Source of the DNA: an uncultured delta proteobacterium
GTDB lineage: Bacteria > Desulfobacterota > Syntrophia > Syntrophales > Smithellaceae
Assembly: GCA_963705555.1 (NCBI GenBank)
Contig: CAVPJZ010000004.1
Coordinates: forward strand, 213,788-277,787
DNA length: 64,000 bases
Direction of reading: 5' to 3'
Positions 15,849 through 59,990 of this stretch are shown here, piece by piece. Both the position numbers and the translations under genes were made by a program. Position 1 is the first letter of the stretch; each line of letters starts with the position of its first letter. The notes under the pieces are model-generated. The model did no database searches, was not told the DNA's origin, and worked only from the letters and a program-made list of their open reading frames with translations.

Positions 15849-15906
15849 TCTTAATGTTTGAGTTCAGCGGCTGCCACAGACAGTCCAGTGTAACGATGCG
15901 TTAGGC
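15849..15906 (-). mobile_element. integron attC-like site closing cassette 1 (R' degenerate)
   Basis: Minus strand GCCTAAC-gcatc-GTTACACT...GCTGAAC-tcaaac-ATTAAGA begins immediately after the ORF stop. Confidence 0.7.
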
Positions 15907-16686
15907 TTACCCTTCTTCGCTACAGTTGCCACAGCCTAGGCTCTCGAATCGCGGATATTGTTCAACTGCTAATCGTGTTCCTGTAGTAAGATCATATCCG
16001 TAGATAATAACCGGTTCGCAGATAACGCCATTATAAAGGCAGGTAGAATCACTCGCTTTGGCCACTAATGCCAAGCCACTCTCAGTTACATATGGAAAAC
16101 CAGGTAGTAATAATCCAGGATCGCAATATGGAGTGAATTCATATCGGTGGACTTGCCCGCTGTCGGTATTGAAGAACAAGAAAGTATCAAGACATCCTGG
16201 GCTTCCACCTACTTGGATGTAACCATATTTGCCGTTTTTTGTTAGGTAATAAAAAAAGTTGCTTGATGGACGATCAGGCGCTTTATCTCTTGATTTTTCA
16301 AACTCGTCTGCATTCGGTTGTTTAACAGACCAATAGTAAATAAATGAGAATGGCATCCTTTTAATAAGTTGTTTTCCACTTTCGTCAATAACCTCAAACC
16401 ATCCTCCTGAAGACCCTAAACCATGACCATAATCCTGCCCCTGTGTTGGGTTAAAGTAAATTGACAAATAACGGTGCGAGTCTAAGGACCTCGCTGCTAT
16501 CAAACCTCTTAACTCATCCTCACCTTTTGCCGTCACCCCTTGGTCTTGCTCTTCTCTGCATTGTTCCCCTTTCTGGGGCCAATGAAAATAAGAGCCTAAA
16601 AATAACCTACCCCCAACCAAAGCTATGGCAGCTGTGCAGAAAATTAATATCAGAATTCTAATGTGGCGATTCACGTTCCACCTCAA
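15907..16686 (-). CDS. hypothetical exported/membrane-anchored Cys-rich protein; integron gene cassette ORF (likely GTG start at 16674)
   Basis: N-terminal hydrophobic segment; GTTAGAC core at 16688-16694 upstream and attC downstream. Confidence 0.7.
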   Translation of the reverse strand: MRWNVNRHIRILILIFCTAAIALVGGRLFLGSYFHWPQKGEQCREEQDQGVTAKGEDELRGLIAARSLDSHRYLSIYFNPTQGQDYGHGLGSSGGWFEVIDESGKQLIKRMPFSFIYYWSVKQPNADEFEKSRDKAPDRPSSNFFYYLTKNGKYGYIQVGGSPGCLDTFLFFNTDSGQVHRYEFTPYCDPGLLLPGFPYVTESGLALVAKASDSTCLYNGVICEPVIIYGYDLTTGTRLAVEQYPRFESLGCGNCSEEG

Positions 16687-16982
16687 GGTCTAACAATGTT
16701 TATATGCATCATTGCGAATATTACAAACACCGCAATGCTGCCAGCATAACACCCTGCAGGAACAACTGCAATTTTAGGTCTAATAACTTAATATTAAACA
16801 ATGATCAATCTATTTCCTATTTTCTCAGTTAGGATATTATATGGATCAGTATAACATCCCAATTGATCTATTAAAGATTGTCCGTGATACTACTTGCCGT
16901 TAATTACGAGCGAAATGATATTTATCCCGACACGCTGCGCTATAGAGATACCACGGATATCTGTGTATCCTCTGCCTGCGGC

Positions 16983-17092
16983 GAGATAATTCAACAAGCA
17001 AATATTACTGCATTGAATTTGTAAAATTTGAGTTTTATTAATTCAACCTGCAAGCTTCAGCGCATTTTGTTTCTGGAGATCGGGTCTCATTA
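16983..17092. repeat. two tandem bulged-hairpin elements (copies D and E), ending on the ABC ATPase stop
   Basis: taattcaac..caaatattac-[12]-gtaaaatttg-agtt and taattcaacc-tg-caagcttcag-[12]-ctggagatcg-ggtctcatta. Confidence 0.7.
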
Positions 17093-17892
17093 TAACCAGC
17101 GTTTGCGGCGTCTATACGATTTGACATCTTTATAGGATTTGGCAATGCCGGAAGCGGCCATGCCCAGATAAAATTCTTTAACATCCGGATTTTTAGCTAG
17201 ATCATTAGCGATGCCTTCCATCACGATTTTGCCGTTTTCCATAACGTATCCGTAATGAGCGACTTGCAGAGCCATATTGGCGTTTTGTTCCACCAGGACT
17301 ATAGTTGTTCCATGCTCTTCGTTGATCTTTTTTATTATGCGAAATATTTCCTGAACAACCAGCGGTGCAAGCCCCAATGAAGGTTCATCTAGCATCAGCA
17401 AGTTGCGGATGAGCCATTAAAGCCCGGCCGATAACCAGCATCTGCAATTCGCCACCGCTGCAATATCCGGCCAGAGATTTTCTTCTCGGTATTAGTGCGG
17501 GAAAATATTTATAGACAAGTTCCAAATCCTGTTTATAGGGCTGGCCTGAATCGTGTAGCAGTACCTACACGCAGATTCTCTTCGATCGTGAGATATTTAA
17601 AAGGCTGACGTCCTTCCAGAACTTGAATTATACCCTGACGCGTAATGTATTCCGGCGCCTGATTTTGGATATTTTTACCGTTATAGATAATCGACCCATC
17701 CGTAACCTCGCCGTTTTCGGGCTTAAGCAGACCGGATATCGCTTTAAGCGTAGTTGTTTTTCCCGCACCGTTACTGCCTAATAATGAGACGATATGTCCC
17801 TTTTCCACAGATAAAGAAACACCTTTCAATACCTGAATAACATCTGAATATACAACGGAAATATTATTTAACTGTAAAAGCATCTCGCCCAT
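17090..17892 (-). CDS. branched-chain amino acid-type ABC transporter ATPase (LivF-like), frameshifted
   Basis: GSNGAGKTT, SGGELQML, LDEPSLGLAP, LVEQNA. Confidence 0.88.
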
Positions 17893-17901
17893 TTTTTATC
17901 C

Positions 17902-18004
17902 TAATCCCGATAAACGGGATAAGTGCTAACTTACTAATCCCGCTATGCGGGATAAGAAAATTTACGTATTTGCTTTTTATAAAAATGCAAATACTAATTT
18001 TCTA
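17902..18004. repeat. two TAATCCCG-n5-CGGGATAA hairpins plus a diverged bulged hairpin (copy H)
   Basis: taatcccgataaacgggataa, taatcccgctatgcgggataa, agaaaatt..gtatttgc..gcaaatac..aattttct. Confidence 0.65.
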
Positions 18005-19075
18005 ATATGAAAAAGGCCAGAGCCGGAAGCTGGAACGTGCAATTCGCCATAGTTCGGCCAAGCCTCGCGGTTCAAACAATATAAATAAAACAATAGCCAG
18101 CCCAAAAGACAAATTCCCGAAGCGGCGCCATATTCAAACCCAGGTTCGTGACAAAGCCGATATTCATGAGCAGGCCGGTAAAAAATCTCAAAAATTCATT
18201 TAATAAAGTAATAAAAGTGGCTCCGAAAATAGCTCCGGGAATGTTTCCCATTCCGCCGATTATGACCATCGCGATAAATTCTACGGAAAGCCCCAAATTA
18301 AATGGTTCCGTAGTTATGCTTACCATATAATAAGCCCAGAGTGCTCCGGCAAAACCGGCATAAAAAGAGCTGATGCGCAAAAGACAACAATTTGTATTTA
18401 AAAATGGGGATACCCATACCTTCTGCGGCACGGTCATTATCGCGGATGGCAATGAAAGCCCGGCCGTATTTACTGCGCATGATGTTTACCGCAAACCAGG
18501 TCATTAGAACCAGGCTGATAAAAATCAAAAAGAAAAATGCTTTATCTCCGGCAATTTCCCACTGGATAATTTTCGGCGCGGGCAAAGTAATGCCCATCGT
18601 TCCTTTGGTCAGGCTATCCCAATGAATCAAAACATATTCAATGATAAACTGTCCGGCCAGTGTCGCAATGGTCAAATAAAGTCCCTTTAAACGTCCCGAA
18701 GGAATACCGAATATCATTCCGACAAGGGCGGTTATAATACCCGCCGCCGGTATGGCTAAATAAAATCCCAATCCTAATCTGGTGGCCAAAATAGCGGCGG
18801 CATAAGCGCCGACTCCGAAAAAAGCGCCGTGACCCAAAGATATCTGCCCGGTATAACCGATAAGAATATTGAGCCCGATGGCGGCAATAGCCGCAATCCC
18901 GATCATATTCAAAATATACAGCATGTAAGGACTCACAACAAAAGGAGCAACACCAAAAAGCAAAATCAAAAATAATCCGAGGCAAATCCGGCCGAAATCA
19001 TGTTTCAAATATTTTTAATTCCTCAGCATAATCTTCGCGATAATTGCCGCAGGGATGAAATGAAAATTTTTTCAT
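18002..19075 (-). CDS. ABC transporter permease (LivM-like), frameshifted
   Basis: GYTGQISLGHGAFFGVGAY, LYLTIATLA, GRAFIAIRDN, MVIIGGMG, FEPRGL. Confidence 0.88.
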
Positions 19076-19956
19076 TTAAACCCTTTCAATTTCCACCAGG
19101 CCAAACAAGCCGTAAGGTTTGACCAGCAAAATAAAAACAAGCACAATATAAGGCACGACATCACGCAGTGAAGGCGACAAGTAGCCGCCGGTAAATGTTT
19201 CCAGAAGACCGATGATAATGCCGCCTACTAATCGCGCCGCCGATGCTGTCCAGCCCGCCTAAAATTACCACGGGAAATACTTTTAAGCCGATCGAACTCA
19301 AATCATGCACATTAACGCCATTGATTATGCCCAGCACGATACCGCTCATACTGGCTACCAGCGCGGCAATGGCCCAGGATAGCGCAAAGACCCGCCGGAC
19401 ATGAACTCCCAGAGAAAGAGCCGCTTTTTGATTATCGGCTACGGAACGCATATAAATTCCCTGAGCTGATTTTTTGAAAAACAGCCCGAATAAAACCAGA
19501 AAAATAATGCTGATGATCAGGGTAGCCGTATAAACAGGAGCAATGTATATGGACCCCAACTGCAGTGCCATTGATTCGCGTTAAAAATTCCGGATAGGTA
19601 TGCAAATTTCCGCCCCAGATCAGCAGAATAAATCCTTTAAACATGGCCGCCAAACCTACCGTCAGCATAATGACAAAAATCAGTTTTTCTCCGATTAACG
19701 GACGCAGAAAAAATTTCTCAATTAGAAATCCCAGAATAAAGCATCCAACCAGTGTCAAAATAAAAGCAATTAAAATCGGCAATTTAGCCCAGGTAATCAA
19801 TGCTAAAAAGAAGAAAGCTCCCAGGGCCAGAAGTTCGCCATGAGCAAAATTCAAAACGCTGGATGATTTAAAAATCATGACAAAGCCCATCGCGGATATG
19901 CCATAGAGAAGTCCGACGCAAACGCCGTTAACCAATAATTGCAGAAAAAAATCCAT
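19076..19956 (-). CDS. ABC transporter permease (LivH-like), frameshifted
   Basis: QLLVNG, LNFAHGE, MRSVADN, VVILGGLDSIGGA, KPYGLFG. Confidence 0.88.
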
Positions 19957-19967
19957 GGATAGATTCC

Positions 19968-21924
19968 TCAACTGACCTTGATAATATTTACTGTTGTTTC
20001 AATTTCGCCTATTCGTCCGTCACGGTAGCGAATTTTTCCGATTACCTTAACATTTTTTTCATCACGGTACATTGCTTCGATGATTTTAATATATAAACCG
20101 TAAACAAAACGGCGTCGAACTTTGCCGGTACGCGTCAATTCTTCTTCATCCGCGTCCAGAAGTTTATACAGCAAAATAAATTTTTTGATCTTCATCACAT
20201 CGGGCAGCTGCTCATTGACCTTACGCACTTCTTTTAAAATCAATTCTTCCACTGCCGGCTGCTGGGAAAGATCCATATATGTCGTGTAGGGAATCATGCG
20301 GTCTTCCGCCCAGTTGCCGACATTTCCCATATCGATATTAATCATGGCGGTAATGAATGGACGGCTCTCACCGAAAATGACCGCTTCTTTAATATAGGGG
20401 CTGAATTTTAAGCGGGTTTCAATAAAATCAGGAGAAAAAGCCTCGCCGCTTTTGTTGCGGATAATATCTTCTTTGCGGCCAATGATCAATAGATGTCCGT
20501 CGCTATCGATGTAACCGGCATCACCGGTTTTGAGCCAGCCGTCTTCAAAAGCGGCTTGCGTTGCCTGATAATCATTATAATAGCCGGAAAAATTGGCTTC
20601 GGATTTAACCAGCACTTCCTGATCATCGGCAATTTTCACTTCGGTCAGCGGCAAGGGTTTACCCACGGTTTCCAGCTTTACTTCATTATCCGGCTGAATT
20701 TGAAATATGCCGCCTGCTTCGGTTAGATCCATAGCATTGTTTTAAATTCAAACCGATGGCGCGGAAAAACAAAATTACATCGGGACTGATCGGATGGCCA
20801 CCGGTAAAGGCGCTGCGAAAACGAGAGCAGCCCATACGATCCAAAAGCGGACGGTAAACGACGATAGACATTAATTTATATAAAACATTTAAGGACAGAG
20901 GAACTCTAGCTTTTTTTGCTCGTTTTTTTAACAACGGCTTTACCTATGATCTCTCCCCAGTAAAATAAATTTCTTCTTTATCCAGCCCGCATCGGATATT
21001 TTTACGCGAATGCGCGAAGCCATATCTTCCCAAAAGCGCGATGCCGTAATTATCATGGAAGGACCGATTTCCCGGAAATCTTCCAGTACCGTTTCCGCGG
21101 TTTCCGGAAAATTCATTGTCATTGCGCTCTACAAGCGCCACGCCCATACCCCACATCTGATCAACAATCCAGGCCGGCGGCGACATGGATAGCCAATTTT
21201 CTTCGGGTTTAATCCCTTGCTGCTTCTATCCATTGAGCAGCCATTTGCATAAAATTGCGATGGGAAAGCATGGCCAATTTGGGAATGCCTGTTGTGCCCG
21301 AAGTTTGAATCATAACGGCGATATCGTCAGGCCGGCCTTTGTTCTATTTCCTCATCAATAAAGCGAGGATTTTCTAAATTAAATTTTTCTCCTTCCTTTA
21401 AAAGCCGGGCATAGCTGATCAACCAGGAATCATTCTCATAAGATGTCATCCCGGTGGGATCAATATAAACAACTTTCTTGATTTGCGGCAGCTTCTCTTT
21501 AACTTCCAGAAGTTTATCTACTTGTTCCTGATCCTGAACTACAACGATTGAGGAATTAACGCGTTTAATAGATGTGCATAATTCTTCGGCGATAGATGAT
21601 GTGAATAAATTCAGTGTGGTTGCGCCCAGAGCATGGGCGGCAATTTCGGAAAAAAGCCATTCCGGATGATTTTCGACAATCAGGCAAACAGTTTCACCGC
21701 GCTGAAGATTCAAGAGCGGCAAATCCGCCGGCCGTTTTCTTCATATAACGATAATAATCAGACCAGCTGTATTTTTGCCAGATGCCGTATGCTTTTTCCC
21801 GAATAGCTGTTTTTGTTTCGCCGTACTTGGACGGCGTTTTCGGCCAGGATTTGCGGTATCGTTAAATTATATCCGTACGATTGTTTTTGTGTCACAATGC
21901 CCAAATTATTTACGCCTTTTTCAT
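19968..21924 (-). CDS. long-chain acyl-CoA synthetase-like AMP-binding enzyme, multiply frameshifted
   Basis: TSGTTGIPK region at 21275-21305, YG-TEAGG, GWLKTGDAG, ELTRTGKVRR. Confidence 0.85.
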
Positions 21925-21928
21925 ATCT

Positions 21929-22757
21929 TTATAATGTACCGGAATCGCCCAGATAGGCTTTGATAACTTCGGGATGGCTGCTGATTTCTTCAGCGGTGCC
22001 CTCACCCATTTTTTCACCAAAATTCAAAACCATAATGCGCTGGGAAATACTCATGACTATGGACATATCATGCTCCACCAAAATCATCGTCAGGCCCCAT
22101 CTCTGATTTAATTCCAGAAGAAAACGAACCATATCTTCCTTTTCTTCCAGATTCATTCCGGCAAAAGGTTCATCCAAAATAAGAAGCCTGGGCTCCAGCG
22201 CCAGCGCCCTTCCCAACTCAACCCTTTTCATCATTCCGTAAGGCAAAGAACCAACTGTTTTTTTCCGGATTGACTGCATTTCCAGAAAATCAATGATTTC
22301 TTCCAATATTTGTCGGTGGCGAATTTCTTCATTTTTTACCGCTGGAGAAAAAAGACAGGATTTAATGAAGCTGTAATGGCAGTGAATGTGGCGGGCCAGT
22401 GTCATATTGGCCAGCACCGTCATTCCCGGAAAAAGCTCAATATTCTGAAATGTTCTGCCGATACCGACATTTAACAAGCTGGTGAGTGTGTAAGTCGGTA
22501 ATATCCTCGCCGTTAAAGATTATTCGGCCTTTTTGGGGGCGGTAAAATCCGGTGATGCAGTTGAGCAGACTGGTTTTACCCGCCCCATTCGGACCAATGA
22601 TTGCCATTAATTCACCGGTATGAACGTTGAGATCAACATCTTTTACAGCTGTAACGCCGCCAAAACTAAGATGCAGATTTTTAATTTCCAGTTCAGCTTT
22701 TTTATTTTCTTCTCGCCGGCTGATCATTATCGATGGCCGACTGCGGAAAGCTTTCAT
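21929..22757 (-). CDS. ABC transporter ATPase (LivG-like), frameshifted
   Basis: GPNGAGKT, GIGRTFQN, LPYGMMKRVELGRAL, LDEPFAG, VEHDM. Confidence 0.88.
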
Positions 22758-22870
22758 TATAATCCTTCAGTTGCTTCGCAAAAAATTAATCTGCGGCGTT
22801 TACCCTGCATAGACTCGGGTTTCTCTACATCCATATTCTCTCGTCACAATTAAGAAATATTTGCGATTAA

Positions 22871-24077
22871 CTATTTCTTGAGCAATTTAATTTTGTCTTT
22901 GCCCGGAACATAAAAATTAGTCAGTGGTATATATGTTCCGTCTTCTTTTACTTTGACCATGCGGGCAGTGAATGACGCTCCGTGATCATCTTTAGTGTAT
23001 GTTATATTGGGAACTAAACCGCCGAAATTTTCATTCTTAAATGATTCCATGGCGGCATTGATGGTTTCCGGATTTATTTTCTTGCTCTTTTCATAAGCAC
23101 GCATAAATGCTCTTTCCATAATCATTCCGATAACAACACCCTCCCAATAGGAAGCATCAAATTTTTCCACTGTCTTATAACGCTTCCATAATTCTTTCAT
23201 TATCTTCATTCCGCCTGGATTTGTCCGCCGGCAATGCTCCGGGAAATTGAATGACAAGCCTATCACGAATCAGCCCGCCGCTCATTTTGAAGAAATCCGG
23301 ATCGGTGGATGTCCATGTTCCCAAAAACAGAGGACTGAAATTAATGCGGTCGGCGCTTTTGAAAGCGGTTATTATCGCTGAAGGCAGCATTTGCATAAAG
23401 ATATATTCCGCTCCGGCTTTCTGCAGACGAAGCAGTTCAGTGTTCAGATCAACTGTTTTCGGTGGAAATTCCTCAATAGCAACGATATTAATATTTAGTT
23501 TAGCGGCGTATTCTTTGCTGGGCTCGTGAATTGACCGGCCATAAGCGTTATTATAGGTGAGAAGACCGACTTTAGGAGTTTCTTTGCCTTTGTGGATTGC
23601 TTTAATATATTCCAACACGGCGTGACAATCCATTTTATAACTGCCGAAAGGAAGATACATATAATCCACCGGCTTTTCGAGTATTTCCCAACTGGTGGAA
23701 TAATTGATCGTCGGCACCTTGTATTTTTGAACTATCGGTTTTGCTGCCAATCCTTCACCGGCGCCCCAGGTGGCGATCATATCTACCTTATCCTGCAAAA
23801 CGAATTTCTGTACAGCAGCCTGAGCCTCCGGCACTTTATAAGCCGTGTCCACGGTGATCATTTCTATCTTGTTGCCGAATACTCCTCCCTTAACTTCATT
23901 TACATAGCGGAAATAATCGCGCTGACCTTTTTCATGAAACTGGCCCCAAGTCGAAGCCGGCCCGGTCAAGTTGATAGCCGCACCTACTTTGATCGTCTTG
24001 GCCTGCGCATTGATAAGAGCGGCAAACAAGAAAACAGTAACCATCAATGCAATTAAAATACCAATCCTCTTTTTCAT
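22871..24077 (-). CDS. ABC transporter periplasmic substrate-binding protein (LivJ/K-like family 6), frameshifted
   Basis: Signal peptide, IKVGAAINLTGPAS, NEVKGGV, DTAYK. Confidence 0.85.
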
Positions 24078-24125
24078 TTTCCCCTCCCATTATTCTGCAA
24101 ATATTTGTTTTCCATGCTTCACGAC

Positions 24126-24494: not shown

Positions 24495-24523
24495 TTGACA
24501 CATGCAGACCATTTTCATATAGT
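24495..24523 (+). promoter_or_regulatory. putative sigma70 promoter of the pilT-like gene
   Basis: TTGACA-17 bp-TATAGT. Confidence 0.6.
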
Positions 24524-24606: not shown

Positions 24607-25881
24607 ATGAATAAGCGTTTTACAGATTTGATCCTAGCCGCCATCAAGCAAAGACTTTCGGACCTCCATATTACGGGAGGTTTTCCCTTGATCTTCCGTA
24701 GAGACGGCGTCATCCATTTCGATAAAAACATCAAATGGTCGCACACGGAAATAGACGCTATGGTTAAGGAAATGTTGAGCGACAGGCAATTACAGACCCT
24801 CAGGAAAAGATGGTCTGTCGACTTCGCTCTTTCCTTCAACCATGTGCGGGCGCGTATCAATGCGTTTTATACCACCCGTGGGTTGAGTCTGGCCATCCGC
24901 CTGCTTCCCGATAAGATTCCTGACCTCACCGCGCTCAACCTGCATCCCTCGCTTAGCCAGATTGTTGAACTTCAATCCGGTCTTATACTGGTTTGTGGAA
25001 GTACAGGTTTCGGCAAATCGACCACCGTAGCCGCCATCATTGAAGAAATCAACCGCACCAAACCCGCCCATATTATAACAATTGAAGATCCTATCGAATA
25101 CAGGTTTAAACCTAAGAAATCTTTCATCGAACAGCGCGAAGTCGGTGTACACGTCCCTTCCTTCAACCAAGGACTTCTGGACGTTCTGAGAGAAAATCCC
25201 GATGTGATCTTCGTAGGAGAATTAAGAGAACCGGATACAATTCGACTAACCCTCAATGCCGCCGAATCCGGGCACCTCGTTTTCGCGACGCTGCACGCAG
25301 CCAATGCCGAAGATGCGGTCTACCGCATTAACAACTGCGTGACCGGCGAGAATCAGGATGTCATACGCTACCAGTTTGCATCAATGCTTTCCTGGCTAGT
25401 TGTTCAGCAGTTGACCTTTATTGAAAGAGTTGGATTCCGCGTACCGATCCTTTCCATCTTAAAGGGGACATCATCGGTTCAGAGCAGTATCCGAGAAAAC
25501 AAGCTGACACAGTTGGAAAATATTATGCTGACTAGTAGAAACGAAGGCATGTTCACGATGAACCTTTATGAAAAGGAATTTATCAGCAACCGCCTTTCGT
25601 TTGTCCATCCGTACAAGAGCTTTGGCATGGGGGCGGATTCCTCCAAGGAAAAGGATTACGTTTCTTCTCTTATCGATCCCAATGCTGTTCAGGATGTAAT
25701 TTATATGTCATCTGTAGATGATGCCAATAAAACCGACAGTACTACAAAATTAACCCTCGGTGACGACGATGAGCAACGTTATGTAATCTTGGAAGACCAT
25801 GACGTGGATCTCAAAGACCTTCTCGCCCAGTACGATGAATCAAAAGAAGAACAAATCAAGAAAAAGCGCCCCAAAAAATAA
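24607..25881 (+). CDS. PilT/PilU-family type IV pilus ATPase, divergent, with a charged C-terminal extension
   Basis: SDLHI, GSTGFGKSTT, TIEDPIEY, QREVG, VGELRE, AESGHLVFATLH. Confidence 0.88.
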   Translation: MNKRFTDLILAAIKQRLSDLHITGGFPLIFRRDGVIHFDKNIKWSHTEIDAMVKEMLSDRQLQTLRKRWSVDFALSFNHVRARINAFYTTRGLSLAIRLLPDKIPDLTALNLHPSLSQIVELQSGLILVCGSTGFGKSTTVAAIIEEINRTKPAHIITIEDPIEYRFKPKKSFIEQREVGVHVPSFNQGLLDVLRENPDVIFVGELREPDTIRLTLNAAESGHLVFATLHAANAEDAVYRINNCVTGENQDVIRYQFASMLSWLVVQQLTFIERVGFRVPILSILKGTSSVQSSIRENKLTQLENIMLTSRNEGMFTMNLYEKEFISNRLSFVHPYKSFGMGADSSKEKDYVSSLIDPNAVQDVIYMSSVDDANKTDSTTKLTLGDDDEQRYVILEDHDVDLKDLLAQYDESKEEQIKKKRPKK

Positions 25882-25935
25882 CGTTCGGCATCAGCAGCAG
25901 CGCGAAGCGTCGTCCGCTGCATGCCGTTGTTCGGC
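25876..25935 (-). mobile_element. integron attC-like site overlapping the pilT stop codon
   Basis: Minus strand GCCGAAC-aacgg-catgcagc...gctgatgc-cgaac-GTTATTT; 60 bp with an extrahelical G in L''. Confidence 0.75.
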
Positions 25936-26092
25936 TGTTTCGCTCACATGCTTCGGCGAACATTGCCCTCCAAACGCCAGTTTTCGACAACACGGGGGTG
26001 CACGGTAAAAGTAGTTTTGCACCAGTAGGCCACTTAGCCTGCCGTAACCATGTTTCTGTTAATATTTTTCTTTAGGCCAAACATATTATAAA

Positions 26093-27476: not shown

Positions 27477-29184
27477 TTACACATTATATAAATTTTTTTG
27501 CTGAATATTTTCATCTATTACAGGCAGCCAAACTGCGCAACTTGTACCAATATTTATACTGCTCTCTATCTTTATTTTTCCACTGTAGCCTTCAACAATA
27601 CGGCCGACTATCGTTAAACCTAAACCGGTTCCCTTATCTTTATTGGTAAAGAAAGGTTCAAATATTTTCCTCAAATTTTCTTGATCAATGCCACAACCGG
27701 TATCAGTAATTTTAATTTCAGCGTATTCCTTTTTATCGTCCAATTTTACCAATGCAATTTCCACAGATAAAACGCCTCCTTTTTCCATTGCCTGAACAGC
27801 ATTAAGAACAAGGTTGTGAATAATTTGTCTGATCTGTCCCCTATTGGCAAAAATAGCGGCATTATCTGAAAATACTTTCATAATTTTTATTTTACTCGAC
27901 CATTCACTGGATAATTTCATGTTCTCAAGAACTTCTTCGGCAACTATGTTTACATCAACCAACTCCCTGGACAAAGGAATGGGACGCGCCAGCAGAAGAA
28001 AGTCCCGCACAAAGCTATCCAGTTGATTTTTACCGCGTAAAATTATCTGCATCAGACGCTTATCGGTTTTTTCTAAGTTCAATCCCTGCTTTAAAAGCTC
28101 AATTGAACCGGTTATCGAAGCCAGCGGATTTCTCATTTCATGCGCCAATCCCGCGGCCATTTCTCCGATTAAAGCTAATCTCTTACTCTTTTCGAGGTTC
28201 TCTTCCATCCGTCTTAATTTCTGTGATGTCCTGAAAAATCAAGATATTCCCTATCTGTTTTTCGTTTTTGTCCTTTAACGGAGAAATTGCACAACCCAGA
28301 TTAATTTTTCCACCTCTTGGCGTCTTGATAATGGCTTCTATTCGACTTTTGCTTTGTTCAGTCATTTTATTTTCTGAAAAAAATGGCATAAATTCCGGGA
28401 AAAATTCCTCAATTTGTCTGTTTTCTATATCGCGTAGCGGAAATCCGGTAATCTCTTCGGCAGCTCGATTAAAAGTTTTTATTCGACCTTGTAAATCTAT
28501 CGTCATTACACCAGTGTCAACGGATTCAATTATACTGCGAAACAGCAAGTCCAGTTGTGCAAAAGCCGATTCTTTTTCTTGCAATAAATATCTTGTTTTC
28601 TTTTCTTGTTCGACAACAAAACTGGCTAAAAATGCTATAATATAAAATGAGACAATGTGCACCAAAACACGAATTAGAACATCTCCAGTGCTGACATTGT
28701 AATCATGATCAACAACTGAAATGGAAGGTATCCATCCGTAAAATTCCAGGTCTAAGAGCAGTCCATAAAATATGCAGGAGGCTGAGGCGACAATTAAACC
28801 TCCTCTACGGCCAAGGAAAATTACCGAATATATTATAACTAGCGTATAAAGAAGTGAATAATTACTGCGGAAACTACCGGTGAAATAGACAAGGAAAGTA
28901 ATAAGTATGATGTCTACGGTTAGCTGCAGGTAAATATTGAAGCGCAAATCTTTAATATATTTCAAGAGTAAGGCATAAACAACGGAGATTATATAAGTTA
29001 AGGTGATAATAGAATAAAGCAAGTAGAGTGTGGTATTTGATGAAACTGGTGATCCCTGCTTCTTTATATCGATATAAATTGCAATCCCCAGAAACAGAGT
29101 CATGATGATAACTCTGAATATGATTAAAAACCGTAACCGCCTTTTATCTTTTTCATCTATGGAGGTTTCTTTATACATCACCAT
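27477..29184 (-). CDS. pilS: PAS-domain sensor histidine kinase (PilS-like), frameshifted near 28210
   Basis: Multiple TM helices, PAS (FNRAAEEITG), AHEMRNPL, DTGCGI, GTGLGL. Confidence 0.78.
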
Positions 29185-46818: not shown

Positions 46819-46819
46819 A

Positions 46820-52983: not shown

Positions 52984-53000
52984 TGATCACCTTACCTTAC

Positions 53001-53027
53001 TAAAAAAAAACCGGCATATTTACCGGT
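53001..53027 (-). terminator. possible weak intrinsic terminator between the M23 gene and secA
   Basis: Minus strand accgg-taaatatg-ccgg followed by a T9 run. Confidence 0.4.
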
Positions 53028-53163
53028 GGATTCGACAAGATTAATTTATTAACAATAAGATATCAGGCCATGAGGCGGAATTTTCGCCAAAGAAAACGAA
53101 TATTTTTATTTTGCTCCTTAATTTTCGCCATAAGACGAGAATCGCATTTTGCGCTTCCGCTTT

Positions 53164-54078
53164 TTAGAACTTATTTTTCAAATACCTTCGTGGATTGACA
53201 GGTACTTTATTAACAAAAACAGCGTAGTGAAGATGCGAACCTGTGCTGCGGCCGGTATCGCCTACATAGCCGATTACGTCTCCTCTTTTAACTCTTACTC
53301 CGTATTTCACGGCTATCTTCGACAAATGAGCATAAGCGGTAACCAAACCGTGGCCATGATCTATTTTTACTAAATTGCCATCTTGAGAATGGTAAGAAGC
53401 ATCAATTACAAGCCCGTCCGCCGTTGACAGCACTTCTTTTCCAAATCTAGTTGCTATATCAATTCCTTTATGAAATTCAACACCGGATGAAAAAGGCGAT
53501 TCTCTTGAGCCAAAATCAGAAGTTATCCACCCTTTAACCGGCCAGATAGTCGGTGTAGCGGCAAGAATTGACTTTTGTTCATGCAAGAAAGCTAATAACT
53601 CATTAAAACTCTTTTCCCGATAATTAGCATCTTCATTTAACGCAGTAATGTTTTTACGCATCCCAAAGATCAACCTCTTTTGATCTTTATCCAATAATTC
53701 TTTTAATCTTGTTTCAGTATTAGCTGCTCCGCCAATACCCAATGGTAGTTTTTTATCTCGTCCTGTCTGATGGGTGGCTAATATTCTAAGCTTTGTATCA
53801 ACTTGCCTTAGTTCCTCCATGCGATCGGAAAATTCATCCACGCGCAGAGCTAAATCTTGAACTTGCTGAGATTGTTCTTTATTTAGTTCTCTTAGCCTGA
53901 CTAACTCAGCTCTATCTCTTTTTATACTCGCATAATCATAAATAAAATAAAGTGCTATGAGGATAGCGACGAAAGAAACTACAAGAAAACTGCTAACTAA
54001 AATTCTGGGAAGTGATATTTTTTTTACGGCACTGTTCGTACGCGAAATAACCATTAAAGTAAACAGGTTACCCGACAT
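53164..54078 (-). CDS. M23 family metallopeptidase with N-terminal TM and coiled coil (start uncertain)
   Basis: WPVKG.ITS.FG, FHKGID, YAHL, GRSTGSHLHY. Confidence 0.9.
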   Translation of the reverse strand: MSGNLFTLMVISRTNSAVKKISLPRILVSSFLVVSFVAILIALYFIYDYASIKRDRAELVRLRELNKEQSQQVQDLALRVDEFSDRMEELRQVDTKLRILATHQTGRDKKLPLGIGGAANTETRLKELLDKDQKRLIFGMRKNITALNEDANYREKSFNELLAFLHEQKSILAATPTIWPVKGWITSDFGSRESPFSSGVEFHKGIDIATRFGKEVLSTADGLVIDASYHSQDGNLVKIDHGHGLVTAYAHLSKIAVKYGVRVKRGDVIGYVGDTGRSTGSHLHYAVFVNKVPVNPRRYLKNKF

Positions 54079-54451
54079 TTTATGTTTTAATATAGATTTG
54101 AAGGATTGCCAGTTTAACATAAGGCTCTTACCTATCATAAAAAAGAGAAAAGTCAAGAATTACTAATTATTAGTCACTTTTTTAAATTCTTCTATATCTA
54201 AGACCACCTGCCGACTGATTTTTATATGATAATATTAAGATTTCTCATATTTATTACCTATAGTTATGTCATAGTGTATTGGGATATCAAGGAAATTATC
54301 AGTACTTTTTTGAACACATTTTTATGAAAACATTGAGAAACTATTGCCTTTTTGGTAATATTTTTGTAATCGCTCAAAGTGGTAATTAAATATCTCTTAT
54401 TGAAATTGCACCTTTTTTCCATTAAAACAATAAAAAAATGAGTTTAACTGC

Positions 54452-55190
54452 TTGGTAAAAATTATAAAATTTTTCAGAATTTATCTCTCGTTAACCGTCT
54501 TTTTGGTGATTCTTTCTTTGTCGGCATGTCTCTTGCGTCCTTCAGCTTCCATACTTAATATAGAAACCATATCCACATTTTCTGAAGACAAAATCGGCAA
54601 ATCCAGACAGATTCTTCTCGTAACCACCGATACTGTATTTTTTTTTACTGAACAAAAAATTTACGTCGTTGAAAAATATGCTGATAAATGGGTTTTAGTT
54701 TTTGAGCCCTTTAATGCCGTAATCGGGAAAAATGGTTTTGCACAGCCCGGAGAAAAAAGAGAAGGCGATGGTAAAACCCCTTCCGGCATCTTTCCTCTTA
54801 AAATGACTTTCGGCTATGATGAGTCCATCAAAACAAAAATGCCCTATCGTCAGGCGCTAGCAGATGATCTCTGGATCGATGACGTGAATGCCGATGATTA
54901 TAACTGTTGGGTCAAAAAAGGCGAGTACGCAAGCTAAATCCTATGAAAAAATGAAACGTGATGATAATCTATACAAATATGGTATTGTCATCGAATATAA
55001 CACCAACCCGGTTATCAAAGGATATGGCAGTGCCATCTTCTTCCATGTCTGGGGAGGAGCTGATATAACTACGGAAGGCTGTGTAGCAGTTTCCGAAGAA
55101 AACATCATTAAAATTCTCGAATGGCTTGATCCAAAGGCAGAGCCGCTCATTATTATGGGAATCGAAGACACAACGTGGAGGCTTCCCTGA
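54452..55190 (+). CDS. L,D-transpeptidase (YkuD-like) family lipoprotein, frameshifted near 54920
   Basis: LSAC lipobox, KREGDGKTPSG, GSAIFFH...TEGCVA (His/Cys dyad). Confidence 0.82.
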
Positions 55191-55967
55191 TGAAATCAAG
55201 AATCGTATTTTCTATATTTCTATTCATAGCTTTATGCTTTTCCGAATTCGCAGTTAGTTCTTTCTGCGCAGATGCAGATAAGGTTCCTGATGGATTTGTC
55301 GATATAAAAGAAATGATTCTTGATATACAGCTCGATATTCGTTATTTCGGTTCTCATAACTTCGTCGGAGAAAGGGTTGACTGGTTACCTGGCGCCAAAA
55401 TGTTTCCTGACAAAAGAAGCGGCCGAAGCGCTCTCCTGACGTCCAGAAAGATCTAGAGCCAGTTTTCACTTGACGCTGAAGATTTACGATTGTTATCGCC
55501 CACAGCGCGCCGTGGATCACTTTGTGCGCTGGGCCAAGGAAATTGATAACTCCAAAACCAAAAAAGAGTTCTATCCGACAGTGGATAAAAGAAACCTTTT
55601 TCGGGATGGCTATATCGACAGCAAATCAGGCCACAGCCGCGGCAGTACTGTTGATTTGACCATCGTCCCCTTACCTACTCCCACGCAGGAAAAATACATT
55701 CCCGGCCAGAAATTACATGAATGTTACCTACCAGCAGCAAAACGCTTTGGGGATAATAGTATTGATATGGGAACTGGTTTTGATTGTTTCCATGAACTAT
55801 CGCATACTGCCAATAAAAGTATTGACCAGCAGCAAAAAATTAACCGGCTTCTGCTTAAAACGCTCATGGAAAAACACGGATTTAAAAATTATGATTTGGA
55901 GTGGTGGCACTACACACTGAAGAATGAACCTTATCCGGATACATATTTTGATTTTGTGATTGAGTGA
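55190..55967 (+). CDS. ddpX: D-alanyl-D-alanine dipeptidase (VanX/DdpX, M15D) with signal peptide, frameshifted
   Basis: DIRY..HNFVG, IYDCYRPQRAV, SGHSRGSTVD, DMGTGFD, EWWHY. Confidence 0.88.
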
Positions 55968-55972
55968 AAAAT

Positions 55973-57210
55973 ATGAAAATTAAATTACCGGCAATTTTTA
56001 AAGTCATACGGATTTTCAATTATCCTGATTGTATCCATCATTATCGGTGCGATTATCGGAATTATTTTCAAGAAAGACGCCGCTGTCCTAAAACCCTTGG
56101 GTGATATTTTCCTAAATCTTCTCTTTACCACCATTGTTCCTCTCGTCTTTTTCTCCATATCATCGGCGGTTGCCGGAATGACTAATATCCGGCGCTTAGG
56201 GAAAATCTTATCGGCGATGATCTTTGTGTTCGTAATCACCGGCCTGATTGCTTCGATTGTCATGCTAGTCGGAGTCATACTTTACCCTCCTGCAGTCGGT
56301 GTCAATGTGAGCTTCGGTAACAGCGTAAATCTCGAACAGTTTAAGGCCTCCGAAGAAATAGTGAAGGCTTTTACAGTCAGCGATTTTACCGATCTTTTAT
56401 CCAAGAAGAATATGCTCGCGCTTATCATCTTTGCCGTCCTCACGGGTCTGGCGACTTCAGCATCGGGCGAACGCGGCAAGAATTTTGCAAATTTCCTGAC
56501 CTCGGCAAGTCAGGTTATGATGAAACTAATCTTCTTCATCATGTACTATGCACCGATCGGTCTTTGCGCTTACTTCGCCTATCTCGTCGGCGTCTTCGGA
56601 CCGGAACTGCTGGGCTCATACGCCAGAGTTGTGATTCTATATTACCCGACGGCCATTTTGTACTTCTTCATTGCCTTCACCCTTTATGTCTTTGTAGCCG
56701 CCAGAAGCGAAGGTCTGCGGCGTTTTTGGCGCAACATCATACCGCCGTCTCTTATTGCTCTGGCTACAGGAAGCTCTATAGCCACAATTCCCGCCAATCT
56801 GGAAGCAGCAGACAAAACTGGTGTGCCCCAGGAAATCAGCGAAGTTTGTCATCCCCGTTGGCGCGACCATGCATATGGAGGGCTCCTGCCTTGCCGCTGT
56901 TGTGAAGATTGCCTTTCTGTTTGGGATATTCAATATTAGTTTTTCAGGAGTTGAAACCATCGCGACAGCGCTCGGTATAGCACTTCTGGTCGGTGTAGTG
57001 GTGAGCGGCATACCAGGAGGCGGTACAATCGGCGAAATTCTAATAATTTCCGTTTATGGCTTTCCGATGGAAGCCTTCCCGCTTATCACGATGATCGGAA
57101 CACTGGTTGACGCTCCGGCCACAATGGTCAACGCTGTCGGCGACAATGTCTCCAGTATTCTTGTCGCGCGAATGCTGGGCGGTAAGGCTTGGATGAAAGG
57201 CGGGCAATGA
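55973..57210 (+). CDS. dicarboxylate/amino acid:cation symporter (DAACS), frameshifted
   Basis: PLGDIFLNL, YAPIG, TGSSIATIP, GATMHMEG, GIPGGG, TMVNAVGD. Confidence 0.88.
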
Positions 57211-57452
57211 CTTTAAATGGAACCGTCACCAATTCTACATGCATCTCAAATGCATTTACCACTTTAAGGAACTTTTCAAAAAGTATATATCCATTCTCTG
57301 CCGGATCCATTTAAGACAAACCGAAAGGATAGAGACACCTTTAAGAAGGCAAAATAAAAATAGAGGAAGTCCCGTTGAGCATGTGGTATATATTGCCGAA
57401 CGGACCGGAGCAGCCATAACTGTGCACACATTTTTTAACAATTACCCGGGTA

Positions 57453-58298
57453 ATGGCTAATCGAATGATGCCCCAAAACAAAAACACCGTAATTGTGTCG
57501 AAGCCGGAAGGAATTTACCGCGGATTTACGAAGTTCATCATTCTCGTTTTAATCCCCCTGCTGTTTCTGCTTTTTACCCTCAGCAGCGTCGCCGATAAAG
57601 CGCCGGCCAGGGCAATCCCTTTTCAGCCCGGGGAAAAACTTACATACAAGGGAAGATGGGGAATAATTCCGGCCGGAGAACTCACACTGGAAGTTCTTCC
57701 TAAACAAACCATCAATGGTATTGAAGCCTATCACTTTGTAATGATTACTAAAACTAGTGCACTAGTCGACCTCATCTATAAAATCCGGGAGAGACAGGAT
57801 TCCTATGTCGATACCGGCATGACTCATAGCATCTTCTATAAAAAAAAGACGGAAAGTGAACATCCGCGTGATGAAAACATAAATTTTAACTGGGAAAAAC
57901 TGGAAGCCACTTATACCAATTTCGGCGAGACGAGGCCGCCGATTCATATCTTACCGGGTACCTTCGATCCGCTTGGTCTTTTTTACGCTCTTCGCCTTCA
58001 TAATCTGATAGAAAATTCAGAAATTTATCTGCCGCTGACCGACGGCAACCTCAACATCGATGTCAGAGCAATTGTCGGTAAAAGAGATATGATCGAAATT
58101 GAAGGAAAAATGTATGACACCATTGAAATTACGCCTAATATGCAAATGTTGGATAAACTGGATAAAGTAGTAAAAAAAAGCGATCATCCGCAACTCAAAG
58201 TCTGGGTAACTGCTGATGAAAAAAAGATCCCCATAAAAATCAGGAGTAAAGTGGGGGTAATTTCGTTTGATTTTGATCTTGTATTAGGTCCATCTTGA
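57453..58298 (+). CDS. DUF3108 domain protein
   Basis: N-terminal TM, PFQPGEKLTY..WG.IPAG, VWVTADEKKIPIKI. Confidence 0.75.
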   Translation: MANRMMPQNKNTVIVSKPEGIYRGFTKFIILVLIPLLFLLFTLSSVADKAPARAIPFQPGEKLTYKGRWGIIPAGELTLEVLPKQTINGIEAYHFVMITKTSALVDLIYKIRERQDSYVDTGMTHSIFYKKKTESEHPRDENINFNWEKLEATYTNFGETRPPIHILPGTFDPLGLFYALRLHNLIENSEIYLPLTDGNLNIDVRAIVGKRDMIEIEGKMYDTIEITPNMQMLDKLDKVVKKSDHPQLKVWVTADEKKIPIKIRSKVGVISFDFDLVLGPS

Positions 58299-58550
58299 AA
58301 CAATATATGCAAGTACATTTTTTACAACCCGGCTCTGTGTACTGCGATAACCTCGGTGTAGTATTTGAAACAAAAAAATCGGCTCTTCCGACTACTCCGA
58401 GGGAGACAGGACGAAAGGCCCGGAGTGACCAATTGCCATTTCTTGACTTTTTTAAATCCATTAAGATATTATATAATAAAATTTAAAGCGTTTCTATTGC
58501 ACTGCAGCTTAAAATTATGCTCTTCCAAAATTAAAGTGAGGTGGAATCTC

Positions 58551-59145
58551 ATGAAAACATTTTACAATTCACTGGTCGTGGTCGTCTTATTAATGATGTT
58601 GACAGGGTGCGTCAGGCTTCTGCCGTCCAGCAAGATAACTGTACAATCACCCTGGCAGGATTTCGATGGCGCCAGATTAGCCTATGAAAAAATAATTCCT
58701 GGTGTAACCACTGTGGATGATATGAAAAAACTTGGGTTTGATCCTTTTTTATTGCCCAATATCAGGGTCATGAACTGTCACAGAGGTTATCAACCTATTC
58801 TTGCCGAATCCTTCTATTAAAAAGGAGGATTTAGATCCCGGCATTCAAAAATGCATCGAGAGTAAGGACCGCTGTACGGCTTACCAAATTTTGCCCAGCA
58901 TGGTAAATGTCAATCGAATAGGTAATTTCTGGCTGGATTTGTTCACATTCAAACGCCATACAGTAAATACCGGATGGGAATTCAAGGGGTTAATCACAAT
59001 TGTTGATAATGTTGTTACTTACAGAGACCCGCCCGGAGGCCGACCCTTAATTCATACGGAACAAGTTGACATTAAACCTTTAGGCCCGCTGCAGGAAGCT
59101 GGATCCGTGGTCATTACCGAGGTTCCGAGACTCTTCGGATTATAA
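58551..59145 (+). CDS. hypothetical lipoprotein, frameshifted near 58780
   Basis: SD GAGGTGG, MKTF..LLMMLTGC lipobox; reading continues in ORF 58801-59145. Confidence 0.7.
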
Positions 59146-59182
59146 GCAACGGCAATCCGGTTAATGATTATATGCATTCCCG

Positions 59183-59380
59183 ATTCCCGGCGGCGGAACG
59201 ATCGGCGAATTGTTAATCATCTCTTTATATGGTTTTCGTCTGGAGGCTTTCCCGCATTATCACGATGATTGGGACATTGGTTGACGCTCCGGCAAAATGG
59301 TCAATGCCATCTGCGATAATGTCTCTAGTATGCTTGTCGCACGAATGCTGGGCGGTAAGGACTGGATGGAGGAGGCTTAA
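59183..59380 (+). pseudogene. 3' fragment of a second DAACS transporter allele
   Basis: Encodes IPGGGTIGELLIISLYGF / ITMIGTLVDAPA / DNVSSMLVARMLGGKDWMEEA*, paralogous to 57010-57210. Confidence 0.85.
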
Positions 59381-59424
59381 TTTATCAATCGAAGTTCGTA
59401 CATTAATTGTTAGAGGCAAGAATA

Positions 59425-59925
59425 ATGAATAATAAACTGATAATGATAGGTATTCTGTTCGTCTTGTTTCTCACTTCAACCTGCGCAATGGCCGATGATG
59501 GGGTAACGAAGTTTTCCTGCGGAAAAACTTCCATCACTCTTTACAACGGCAATACAGCGGAATCTCCCTTCTTCGTCATTACTGTTTGGAATGGAAAATC
59601 AAAGAAATATTATCCCTTCCCCGTGACTAACGAATTCCTTGATGTGAGGTGCGAAAAAGATAAGAAAGGTAAAGACTACCTTCTTGTTAACCACTTCTGC
59701 GGCGGTAGTGGGTGCGCAGAGTCTAATTATGCACTAATCGATCTCGCCACTAATAAGGAAGTCTTAAAAGCCTCGGAGCAATATAATAGAGGTAATAATA
59801 AAGCCGCATCTTTACTGGGCAAGACCGTCACGCCATTTTCGTGCGAAAAACGAGCGAAAGGTTCATCTACACCGAATGACAATGGGGAATTTTGTATAGT
59901 TTCTCCGATAGGAAGGTTAAAATAA
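59425..59925 (+). CDS. hypothetical secreted Cys-rich protein; integron gene cassette ORF
   Basis: Signal peptide (AMA-DD), 6 Cys in the mature part; GTTAGAG at 59409-59415 upstream and CTCTAAC downstream. Confidence 0.75.
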   Translation: MNNKLIMIGILFVLFLTSTCAMADDGVTKFSCGKTSITLYNGNTAESPFFVITVWNGKSKKYYPFPVTNEFLDVRCEKDKKGKDYLLVNHFCGGSGCAESNYALIDLATNKEVLKASEQYNRGNNKAASLLGKTVTPFSCEKRAKGSSTPNDNGEFCIVSPIGRLK

Positions 59926-59932
59926 CAGGAAC

Positions 59933-59990
59933 CTCTAACAACGGCTTGCAGCTGGTCGTATGCCGCTCCCGCTGAAGCCGAGCCTAATAG
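59933..59990 (+). mobile_element. integron attC-like site closing cassette 2 (R' degenerate)
   Basis: CTCTAAC-aa-cggctt(g)cagc...gctgaagccg; R'' is the exact complement of the GTTAGAG upstream of the ORF. Confidence 0.75.

Follow-up and report, generated by a model that had tools for sequence, protein, structure and literature searches.

Three single attC sites in a Smithellaceae genome as probable SALIN-type relics on orphan attI sites

Here we report that three attC sites within 64 kb of the genome of an uncultured delta proteobacterium (Smithellaceae; GCA_963705555.1, contig CAVPJZ010000004.1) most likely represent, with a probability of roughly 70%, the 3' ends of single cassettes in integrase-less mini-integrons, each composed of an orphan attI, one cassette and an attC. 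We regard the sites, termed S1, S2 and S3, as SALIN-type relics on orphan attI sites. The 64-kb stretch analysed, hereafter the window, belongs to a 2.42-Mb assembly that is 73.5% complete. The features of the three loci are as follows.

15849..15906 (-): S1 attC, decayed, ending a one-gene cassette (R3 model, 19.0 bits, E 0.039, full length)
15907..16686 (-): S1 cassette ORF, 259 aa from the first TTG (ORF list)
16690..16899 (-): orphan attI platform, type 1 (nhmmer, profile positions 56-266, E 1.9e-38)
25876..25935 (-): S2 attC, intact (R3 model, 25.8 bits, E 5.8e-4; R2 model, 17.8 bits; fold)
25936..26048 (-): ORF-less remnant from S2 to a GTTACGG motif about 45 nt past the pilR stop codon (sequence)
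59389..59411 (+): orphan attI core, type 2b, TCGAAGTTCGTACATTAATTG|TT (one mismatch to a 23-mer of G089:C185)
59407..59925 (+): S3 cassette ORF, 172 aa from TTG (ORF list)
59933..59990 (+): S3 attC, decayed, of the same subtype as S2 (R3 core match, fold, shared scaffold)

The three sequences are found at these coordinates and on these strands, where a preliminary description of the window had placed attC-like sites, each standing alone, and the covariance-model search that it suggested as a check bore this out. Two clade-specific models were built in this analysis, distinct from IntegronFinder's own attC model. The R2 model was trained on 25 attC sites that neighbour IntI genes of 7 other genomes, and nothing from this genome entered it; the R3 model was trained on 55 sites, none of them from the window, which are in part orthologous S1 and S2 loci of relatives together with other sites of this genome. 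With E-values that are rough for both models, R3 gave four matches at E ≤ 10 in the 64 kb, the top three being S1, S2 and S3 on the expected strands; the match to S3 covers only the L''-loop-L' core at 59945-59977(+) (14.4 bits, E 0.64). The fourth, at 3162-3205 within an ORF (13.7 bits, E about 1), was taken as noise. At the same threshold, the sole R2 match over the whole window is S2, exactly 25876-25935(-) at full length (E 0.087), on a scale where the true first attC beside an IntI gene (L052:2283-2346, in a bona fide array) reaches 18.5 bits; outside this window-wide list, S1 and S3 scored 10.2 and 9.0 bits, respectively. Judged by score alone, only S2 would stand clearly beyond chance, and the cases of S1 and S3 are carried by their context. 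The R3 helices show compensatory change, with 82.9% of cells paired in an alignment fitted to the model, compared with 72.4% in shuffles and 18-50% in slid alignments.

Each site is a single attC with no same-strand attC nor integron integrase nearby, which is how a SALIN is defined. There is no second R3 match near S1, S2 or S3, and the integron integrase profile TIGR02249 (curated cut-off 265 bits) has no match on the contig; the best match in the genome reaches 81.6 bits, and no integron integrase was found in this 73.5% complete assembly. The absence of an integrase or an array from the window, as first described, was thus upheld. The R''-5 nt-L'' spacing and the extra L'' base that had been noticed from the letters are visible in the model alignments of all three sites, with one mismatch in S1. 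S1 has R'' GCCTAAC, an L''/L' helix with a bulged A and one mismatch, and R' ATTAAGA, in which the core G is gone. The boxes of S2 are R'' GCCGAAC, spacer AACGG, L'' CATGCAGC with a bulged G, L' GCTGATG and R' GTTATTT. Those of S3 are R'' CTCTAAC, spacer AACGG, L'' CTTGCAGC with a bulged G and L' GCTGAAG, with R' replaced by CTAATAG. The R'' core AAC is therefore present in all three sites, and the R' core GTT in S2 only; many split genes in the assembly put single-base features of this kind at some risk. DNA folding of S2 and S3 gave the attC geometry with the bulged G, whereas the minimum-energy fold of S1 is not the attC hairpin. The common scaffold proposed for two of the sites is likewise real: the 13-mer AACGGCWTGCAGC occurs at only two places in the 2.42-Mb genome, S2 and S3, and the scaffold recurs at platform-linked sites in this genome (G000:C1:298977-299037) and in a relative (G018:C87:1367-1426).

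Ordinary hairpins, such as terminators or repeats, might resemble attC by chance. S2 sits in the gap of a convergent gene pair, with a T-run after it, the S1 fold departs from the hairpin, Rfam has no match for the three sites, and purely geometric attC scanners did no better than chance: at an equal threshold, the real genome gave 33 matches and shuffled genomes about 37 each. Such a coincidence is nevertheless highly improbable, given that the sites are the top three matches of a model built elsewhere, that strong attC sites occupy orthologous positions in relatives, that a terminator scan flagged none of the three and that the shared 13-mer is confined to S2 and S3. We place S1, S2 and S3 in the attC family of the clade.

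The integrons of this clade fall into three or more types, which differ in their attI sequences. The type 1 attI ends in ...CCATATAAACAWTG|TT just after a co-directional intI, at about 170-185 nt past its stop codon (L042-L050, L074), and the type 2 attI ends in ...GTAYATTAATTG|TT upstream of a divergent intI, at about 140-150 nt before its start (L072, L097). In these relatives the sequences lie between intI and the first cassette and appear to be exchanged at G|TT, as an attI would be; the window copies are without intI. A type 1 platform profile for nhmmer was assembled from 7 IntI-linked sequences spanning the intI end and the attI region.

S1 begins immediately after the stop codon of a same-strand ORF, the likelier start of which is a GTG at 16674 preceded by GAGGTGG. 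Directly ahead of this ORF lies the 210-nt type 1 platform, composed of about 28 nt of the intI 3' end, a palindrome and an attI region that ends in TATAAACATTG|TTA (16704 down to 16691); it aligns with loci where the region directly follows an intI stop codon. S3 begins 7 nt after the stop codon of its same-strand ORF, and this cassette starts directly after the attI core at 59389..59411. In G089:C185 the corresponding 23-mer precedes a divergent intI by about 140 nt; next to the 23-mer come a cassette and then an attC-like site (seen by eye and unscored). A related form of the junction adjoins intI in G008:C80. The S3 ORF is likely to start at the ATG at 59425, giving 166 aa, and its N-terminus looks by eye like a signal peptide. 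Neither cassette ORF has a Pfam match at E ≤ 1 or a known family. In both loci the attC thus follows an ORF with its start at an attI-type junction, and the S1 platform retains a scar of the intI 3' end.

At S2 the attC follows an ORF-less stretch, and a cassette without an ORF is permitted in an attC context; we infer that 25936..26048 is the rest of the S2 cassette. The platform profile found no match at this locus in our genome. In relatives, a platform is present at the same locus in G011 (profile positions 96-266, E 4e-10) and weakly in G005, and other attC sites abut the S2 junction in G006 (30.4 bits) and G012 (14.3 bits), so that the same G|TTATTT junction carries three different attC sites in three genomes. 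The intergenic spacer at this locus measures between 26 and 817 bp. The attI architecture proposed for S2 rests on these relatives, because no platform is detectable here.

Among relatives, each of the three loci varies or stands empty. The S1 locus is empty in G006 (22 bp), G007 and G013, where the cassette ORF is absent, and G008, G009 and G012 have different genes in place of this ORF; strong attC sites occupy the S1 position in these last three genomes (38.4, 38.7 and 29.4 bits, respectively), and the right junction is orthologous to GTTAGATG of G012. The variable region at S3 extends from 16 nt (G003) to 1275 nt (G021). At the S3 locus of relatives, no attC match at E ≤ 1 was found in the variable stretch of 13 loci. 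Between the congeners G008 and G009, the S1 flanks are 94-95% identical and the cassettes are unrelated, with homology ending exactly at the attI junction and at R'. This pattern indicates that the cassette at the S1 locus was exchanged precisely between attI G|TT and attC G|TT, and would lend indirect support to recombination of the folded single-stranded attC by IntI. Both genomes encode IntI elsewhere and their S1 locus itself is integrase-less, which supports, in relatives, the earlier suggestion that such sites are served in trans.

The original proposal had further held that IntI in trans inserted the cassettes at secondary GTT sites. Such attC x attG recombination, which would leave ordinary host DNA on the left of a single cassette, is the SALIN origin proposed in a survey that reports 3400 SALINs in 21,105 genomes together with experimental insertion (10.1101/2022.09.11.507474). 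In its favour, no attI platform is detectable at S2 in this genome, the R' of S2 fuses with the stop codon of the pilT-like gene, to which its TTA is complementary, and IntI is present in 6 of 14 congeners. The left flanks of S1 and S3, however, are not ordinary host DNA; these are copies of intI-adjacent attI sequence, namely the 210-nt intI-end/attI copy before S1 and the G089 23-mer before S3. In addition, the S2 locus bears a platform in G011 and G005, and the G008/G009 swap uses the attI junction. We therefore consider attG insertion distinctly unlikely, and the claim of arbitrary target sites was not borne out.

The favoured reading, an orphan attI with one cassette and its attC, is also supported beyond the window. 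Integrons are common in this lineage: IntI scores exceed the curated cut-off in 128 of the order's 339 genomes, 6 of 14 congeners among the carriers, and L052 is a bona fide array beside IntI. This genome contains many orphan copies of two attI types, and no intI was found in its 73.5% complete assembly. Of the type 1 platform, there are five clear copies, each followed within 1.5 kb by a same-strand R3 match (63.8 to 15.8 bits). Junction motifs exceed the chance expectation, at 8 versus 0.45 for type 1 and 7 versus 0.2 in shuffles for the 14-nt core of type 2. The stricter type 2b 23-mer, at no more than one mismatch, occurs five times in this genome (G000) and in 27 of 116 family genomes, with none for the reversed control. 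Type 2 copies at C2:608908 and C6:72460 lead to attC sites of 47.8 and 27.0 bits; altogether, an attC was detected after only 5 of the 8 type 1 junction copies of this genome and after only 2-3 of the 7 type 2 copies. As had been anticipated, scattered attC sites are a feature of the whole genome: besides the window sites there are a three-site cluster behind a platform copy (C2:807457-808893) and at least five more single sites. Such sites are present in 15 of 15 genus genomes, at 1-31 each and including IntI-less ones, for instance 15 in G010, which has no IntI and is 95% complete.

These observations lead us to a putative model in which the loci are decapitated integrons, or copied attI ends, that IntI would have served in trans for as long as the cell possessed an integrase. 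S1 (core ATT) and S3 (core CTA) would now be frozen in this genome, their present mobility being doubtful because the GTT cores are mutated, and S2 (core GTT) could recombine again given IntI. The junction region would probably drive expression of the cassette genes; a simple sigma-70 scan did not flag the junctions as promoters.

How the attI copies arose may be asked from their left ends. All platform copies retain less than about 90 nt of intI; matches to the type 1 profile start at positions 5, 23, 55, 56 and 71 here and between 67 and 96 in relatives, and the longest intI remnant beside a platform encodes 26 aa (C2:809741-809818, tblastn). Such uniformly short scars would be odd under random deletion. 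One alternative is that attI-cassette-attC modules are themselves mobile or copied, for example as circles excised from a secondary site near the intI end to a downstream attC and then re-inserted, so that the copies would not be the remains of many separate integrons. No type 1 copy begins farther than about 90 nt from the intI stop codon, empty sites exist, and the S1 locus carries a type 1 platform in G000, G008 and G009, whereas G012 and G005, which are more closely related, have a type 2 junction there; Loot et al. report that excision can be imprecise and fall outside the insertion point. On the other hand, the left boundaries vary in base, the S1 locus is without a clear GTT-type joint or target duplication, homologous replacement via conserved flanks would yield the same pattern, and no circular or duplicated intermediate was found. 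We thus hold mobile modules to be unlikely. A tentative reading that is likewise improbable on balance is a distributed integron, in which dozens of orphan attI sites of two or three types, dispersed along the chromosome, would carry 1-3 cassettes each, be served in trans by any IntI present and spread as modules to new loci and hot spots; such spread would account for the fact that no copy begins more than about 90 nt from the intI stop codon.

In our preferred reading, the loci belong to a known kind of integron relic, and what is unusual is that the docking sites are copied many times. Like SALINs, each comprises one attC and a cassette with no integrase nearby, there are several per genome, and cassette function is without assignment. 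Unlike in the attC x attG origin proposed for SALINs, the left side here is an attI copy, with an intI scar at S1, and two of the three attC cores are mutated. The integrase-less cassettes, together with the three-site cluster of the same genome, are also reminiscent of CALINs, for which integrase loss is one proposed origin. In the 2016 CALIN survey (PMC4889954), 95% of CALINs have no recognisable intI pseudogene within 10 kb, in a search by protein profiles with more than 50% coverage required; the intI scars here measure only 28-90 nt and come to light solely in DNA comparisons, by way of the conserved attI region. With the complete chromosomal integrons of relatives (for example, L052 in G128, L072 in G008, L048 in G009), the loci share the attC family, the attI junctions and the G|TT exchange points, and differ in having platforms without an adjoining intI, one cassette per window locus and copies over several contigs.

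Co-directional ("inverted integrase") integrons are described for spirochaetes and others. Type 1 integrons of the clade resemble them in that intI and the cassettes run in the same direction with attI after the intI stop codon, of which the window holds the orphan platform only. Taken alone, the window has modest significance, with three relic cassettes, no known family for their ORFs and two sites that are probably immobile. For the origin of integrase-less cassettes (CALINs and SALINs), the clade offers single sites and small clusters headed by attI copies, one of them with an intI scar, and can be used to ask whether orphan attI sites work in trans and how the copies multiply. These findings suggest that many SALINs and CALINs elsewhere could be classified anew by searches that take attI into account; if the distributed integron were true, many of those in other phyla may be unrecognised modules with an attI at their head, and neither attG insertions nor random debris. 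The earlier suggestion that cassettes might arrive as ssDNA through a competence/pilus system has its basis in gene adjacency, the window also encoding a pilT-like gene, pilR/pilS and comEC. Repeated motifs were seen by eye within the platforms.

As judged from sequence, the three attC sites in the window are best read as the ends of mini-integrons that lack an integrase, each holding one cassette and starting with an orphan attI. All three sequences, here S1, S2 and S3, were recovered at the positions and on the strands proposed in the preliminary description:

15849-15906, minus strand: S1, GCCTAAC / GCATC / GTTACACT ... GCTGAAC / TCAAAC / ATTAAGA
25876-25935, minus strand: S2, GCCGAAC / AACGG / CATGCAGC ... 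GCTGATG / CCGAAC / GTTATTT
59933-59990, plus strand: S3, CTCTAAC / AACGG / CTTGCAGC ... GCTGAAG / CCGAGC / CTAATAG

As DNA, S2 (-14.9 kcal/mol) and S3 (-11.5 kcal/mol) each fold into a single hairpin whose 5' arm has a bulged G, a shape that the best fold of S1 lacks. The scaffold said to be common to S2 and S3 was confirmed by a 13-mer, AACGGCWTGCAGC, found at these two sites only in the whole source genome (G000). Among the three sites, only S2 keeps the GTT core in R'. A terminator scan flagged none of them, and the reading as terminators was dropped. Rfam gave nothing relevant at gathering thresholds across the window or at E≤10 near each site. Short-word BLAST (blastn-short) of the sites against arrays and genome returned only words of 10-16 nt, at chance level, and three home-made geometric or energy-based attC scanners were discarded, being noisy on true arrays and reporting 33 hits in the genome versus ~37 per shuffle.

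Given that these quick tests were uninformative, clade-specific covariance models were built from true integrons. Matches to the integron integrase profile TIGR02249 pass the curated cut-off in 128 of the order's 339 genomes and, within the genus, in 6 of the 14 genomes besides G000. In one relative (G128, locus L052), IntI is followed by some dozen regularly arrayed repeats of attC form. Five equal-format L052 repeats, realigned with Infernal, seeded the first model (R1), because MAFFT displaced the R'' box when attC sites of mixed spacing were aligned. The second model (R2) was trained on 25 sites found by R1 around IntI genes in seven genomes, with nothing from G000; these sites had E-values no higher than 0.25, and the four weakest ranged from 0.0012 to 0.25. 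The third (R3) was trained on 55 sites that R2 found in loci totalling 373 kb, none in the window; they include attC sites at the relatives' orthologous S1 and S2 loci. Compensatory change is seen in the paired columns of the R3 alignment, which is fitted to the model and thus favours structure: 82.9% of the cells are paired, versus 72.4% when shuffled and 18-50% when slid. The E-values of all models are rough by construction.

Over the whole window at E≤10, R2 returned one match, S2 at its exact coordinates (17.8 bits, E 0.087); for comparison, a genuine first attC adjoining IntI scores 18.5 bits. R1 and R2 are skewed to one attC subtype, and the window-wide R2 search overlooked S1 and S3, which reached 10.2 and 9.0 bits on small stretches. 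R3 gave four matches at E≤10. S2 led (25.8 bits, E 5.8e-4), followed by S1 (19.0 bits, E 0.039) and the S3 core (14.4 bits, E 0.64); the fourth match, at 13.7 bits, falls within a gene. On R2 and R3 score, S2 can be regarded as an attC in its own right, and the identification of S1 and S3 depends on context. According to the IntegronFinder 2 paper, single-site CALINs can be true positives (PMC9024848).

At the S1 locus, read on the minus strand, an ABC ATPase gene is followed by a variable stretch and an AMP-binding enzyme gene. The empty sites sought among relatives were found here: the two flanking genes lie 22 bp apart in G006, and G007 and G013 are likewise empty. Three other relatives (G008, G009 and G012) carry one gene and then a strong attC at the S1 position (R2 38.4, 38.7 and 29.4 bits, none in R2 training). 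The corresponding gap of G000 contains an ORF without a Pfam match, then S1, and upstream of this cassette ORF lies the following element:

16690-16899 (210 nt), minus strand: attI platform of type 1, ending TATAAACATTG followed by TTA

Its counterpart, ending TATAAACAATG followed by TT, stands directly after the intI stop codon at loci L042-L050 and L074 of relatives, where intI and cassettes are co-directional. Seven IntI-linked loci supplied a DNA profile that covers the final 83 nt of intI and the region after it. The window copy matched this profile with E 1.9e-38 from profile position 56 onwards, so that the copy includes ~28 nt of the intI end. As the window element is the same as the intI-adjacent element of relatives, it is the attI region of a type 1 integron, here without integrase. 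Moreover, the flanks of the S1 locus are 94-95% identical on both sides between G008 and G009; their homology breaks off precisely where the attI junction ends and starts again with the attC R' box, and unrelated cassettes of 796 and 580 nt lie in between. Boundaries of this kind would be expected from IntI-mediated exchange at attI. The locus carries no intI, and both genomes encode IntI elsewhere. Exchange at integrase-less loci in relatives supports service in trans within the genus, as first proposed. In chromosomal integrons, cassette shuffling is reported to be linked to natural transformation (2025; PMC12614218), which is relevant in general terms to the proposed arrival of cassettes through the competence system.

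In the S3 region, between 16 nt (G003) and 1275 nt (G021) of unrelated content separate a fragment of a transporter gene from the conserved gene that follows. S3 itself starts 7 nt past the stop of an ORF, again with no Pfam match, and this ORF is preceded by the junction TCGAAGTTCGTACATTAATTG followed by TTAGAG. The 14-nt core of the junction occurs seven times in G000 versus 0.2 times in shuffles, and attC sites follow two of the other copies (47.8 and 27.0 bits). A 23-mer, GCGAAGTTYGTAYATTRATTGTT, is present with at most one mismatch in 27 of 116 family genomes, up to nine copies each (reversed control, 0). On contig C185 of G089 it lies ~140 nt upstream of a divergent intI, followed by a cassette and a sequence judged attC-like by eye, without a model score; a related form heads the array on contig C80 of G008. 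The L boxes of S3 are common to S2 and to two sites after type 1 platforms (G000:C1:298977-299037 and G018:C87:1367-1426). At the S3 locus of relatives, no attC was found at E≤1. Sequence coding for the C-terminal part of a sodium:dicarboxylate symporter occurs here in two copies with 81% identity (57010-57195 and 59183-59368); the second, a frameshifted fragment, stops immediately ahead of the S3 cassette.

The preliminary description had single cassettes inserted by IntI at secondary genomic GTT sites. In the literature, a single attC without integrase (SALIN) is indeed attributed to attC x attG insertion (10.1101/2022.09.11.507474). Here, in contrast, the S1 and S3 cassettes are headed by copies of attI junctions that adjoin intI in relatives; secondary-site insertion is thus not the best fit for these two sites, and it is possible for S2. 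The S2 site lies between convergent pilT-like and pilR genes, and the stop codon of the pilT-like gene is complementary to the TTA in the R' of S2. The intergenic length is 209 bp in G000, 26 bp in G019 and 585-817 bp in four congeners. Different attC sites in G006 and G012 (R2 30.4 and 14.3 bits) end on the same CGTTATTT junction as S2, and a type 1 platform is present at this locus in G011 (E 4e-10) and weakly in G005. At the S2 locus of G000 itself, where ~110 nt of unassigned sequence lies between S2 and pilR, no platform is detectable. In G010 (L011), the intergenic region has an extra ~250 nt with several short repeats between the cassette gene and pilR. The junctions were not flagged by a sigma-70 scan, so no promoter claim is made.

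The absence of an integrase extends from the window to the available genome: in the G000 assembly (2.42 Mb, six contigs, rated 73.5% complete), the best TIGR02249 match scores 81.6 bits against a cut-off of 265. The only matches of a tblastn search of G000 with the IntI of G009 were XerC/D-like genes and, next to a platform, a C-terminal remnant of 26 aa, the longest piece of intI found there. Given the mutated cores and the lack of an integrase in the available 73.5%, S1 and S3 are probably now frozen. An R2/R3 search of G000, in which R3 scored the best 150 of ~1100 first-look candidates and S1 and S2 are not among the matches listed, found at least these attC sites:

C2:807457-808893: cluster of three attC sites
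C1:325543, C2:490602, C2:608222, C1:657670, C4:46244, C1:298977: single attC sites

The type 1 platform has five clear copies in G000, and an R3 match follows within 1.5 kb on the same strand in 5/5. R2 matches with E≤0.01 occur in all 15 genus genomes, 1-31 each, including nearly complete IntI-less ones.

CALINs are clusters of integrase-less attC sites, and 95% of them have no recognisable intI pseudogene nearby, according to one survey (PMC4889954). Each copy of the type 1 platform retains less than ~90 nt of intI. The attI type at the S1 locus differs among close relatives. As to how the attI copies multiplied, these scars and differing types fit spreading modules, flank-mediated replacement or repeated decapitation equally. 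A literature search outside subscription journals found no relevant paper on orphan or multiple attI sites.

A third attI type, with repeated ATAAGTGGAA boxes and its exchange point between TTCCRYYTATTACACTG and TT, stands beside a divergent intI at L051, L052 and L058 (G003, G128 and G053); this intI-adjacent form (...TTATTACACTG followed by TT) is not present in G000. A 50-nt GC-rich hairpin with AAC...GTT ends (G000:C2:120043-120092, minus strand) lies ~500 nt after a type 1 platform and is possibly an atypical or short attC; the R3 match is not this hairpin but a site further on, at C2:119100-119166.

Within the platform of the window, a palindrome at 16800-16840 (minus strand; GGGATRTTATAC...GTATAAYATCCC, arms of ~13-14 bp, spacer of ~6-7 nt) immediately follows the intI stop codon or what is left of intI and is retained in orphan copies; the arm motif recurs a third time ~45 nt before the exchange point. 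The palindrome may be a site of protein binding or of recombination. At the attI junctions of L046, L047 and L074 (about 2630, 2630 and 5086), the first feature is a 33-nt perfect-looking palindrome, GTTCGNCCGCCGC...GCGGNCGAAC, composed of an R'-like and then an R''-like box with almost nothing between; it may represent an empty or minimal cassette joint. A repeat of 55-58 nt (17039-17096, also 8475-8531; 84-90% identity) has dozens of copies in every genus genome, and its longer form spans ~16922-17096, between the ABC gene and the attI platform. Many genes at 16900-24100 and 27477-29184 are in pieces (ABC ATPase, branched-chain permease, AMP-binding enzyme, periplasmic binding protein and pilS, the last in two parts, 27477-28208 and 28183-29184), which points to frameshifts, from assembly indel errors or real pseudogenes.
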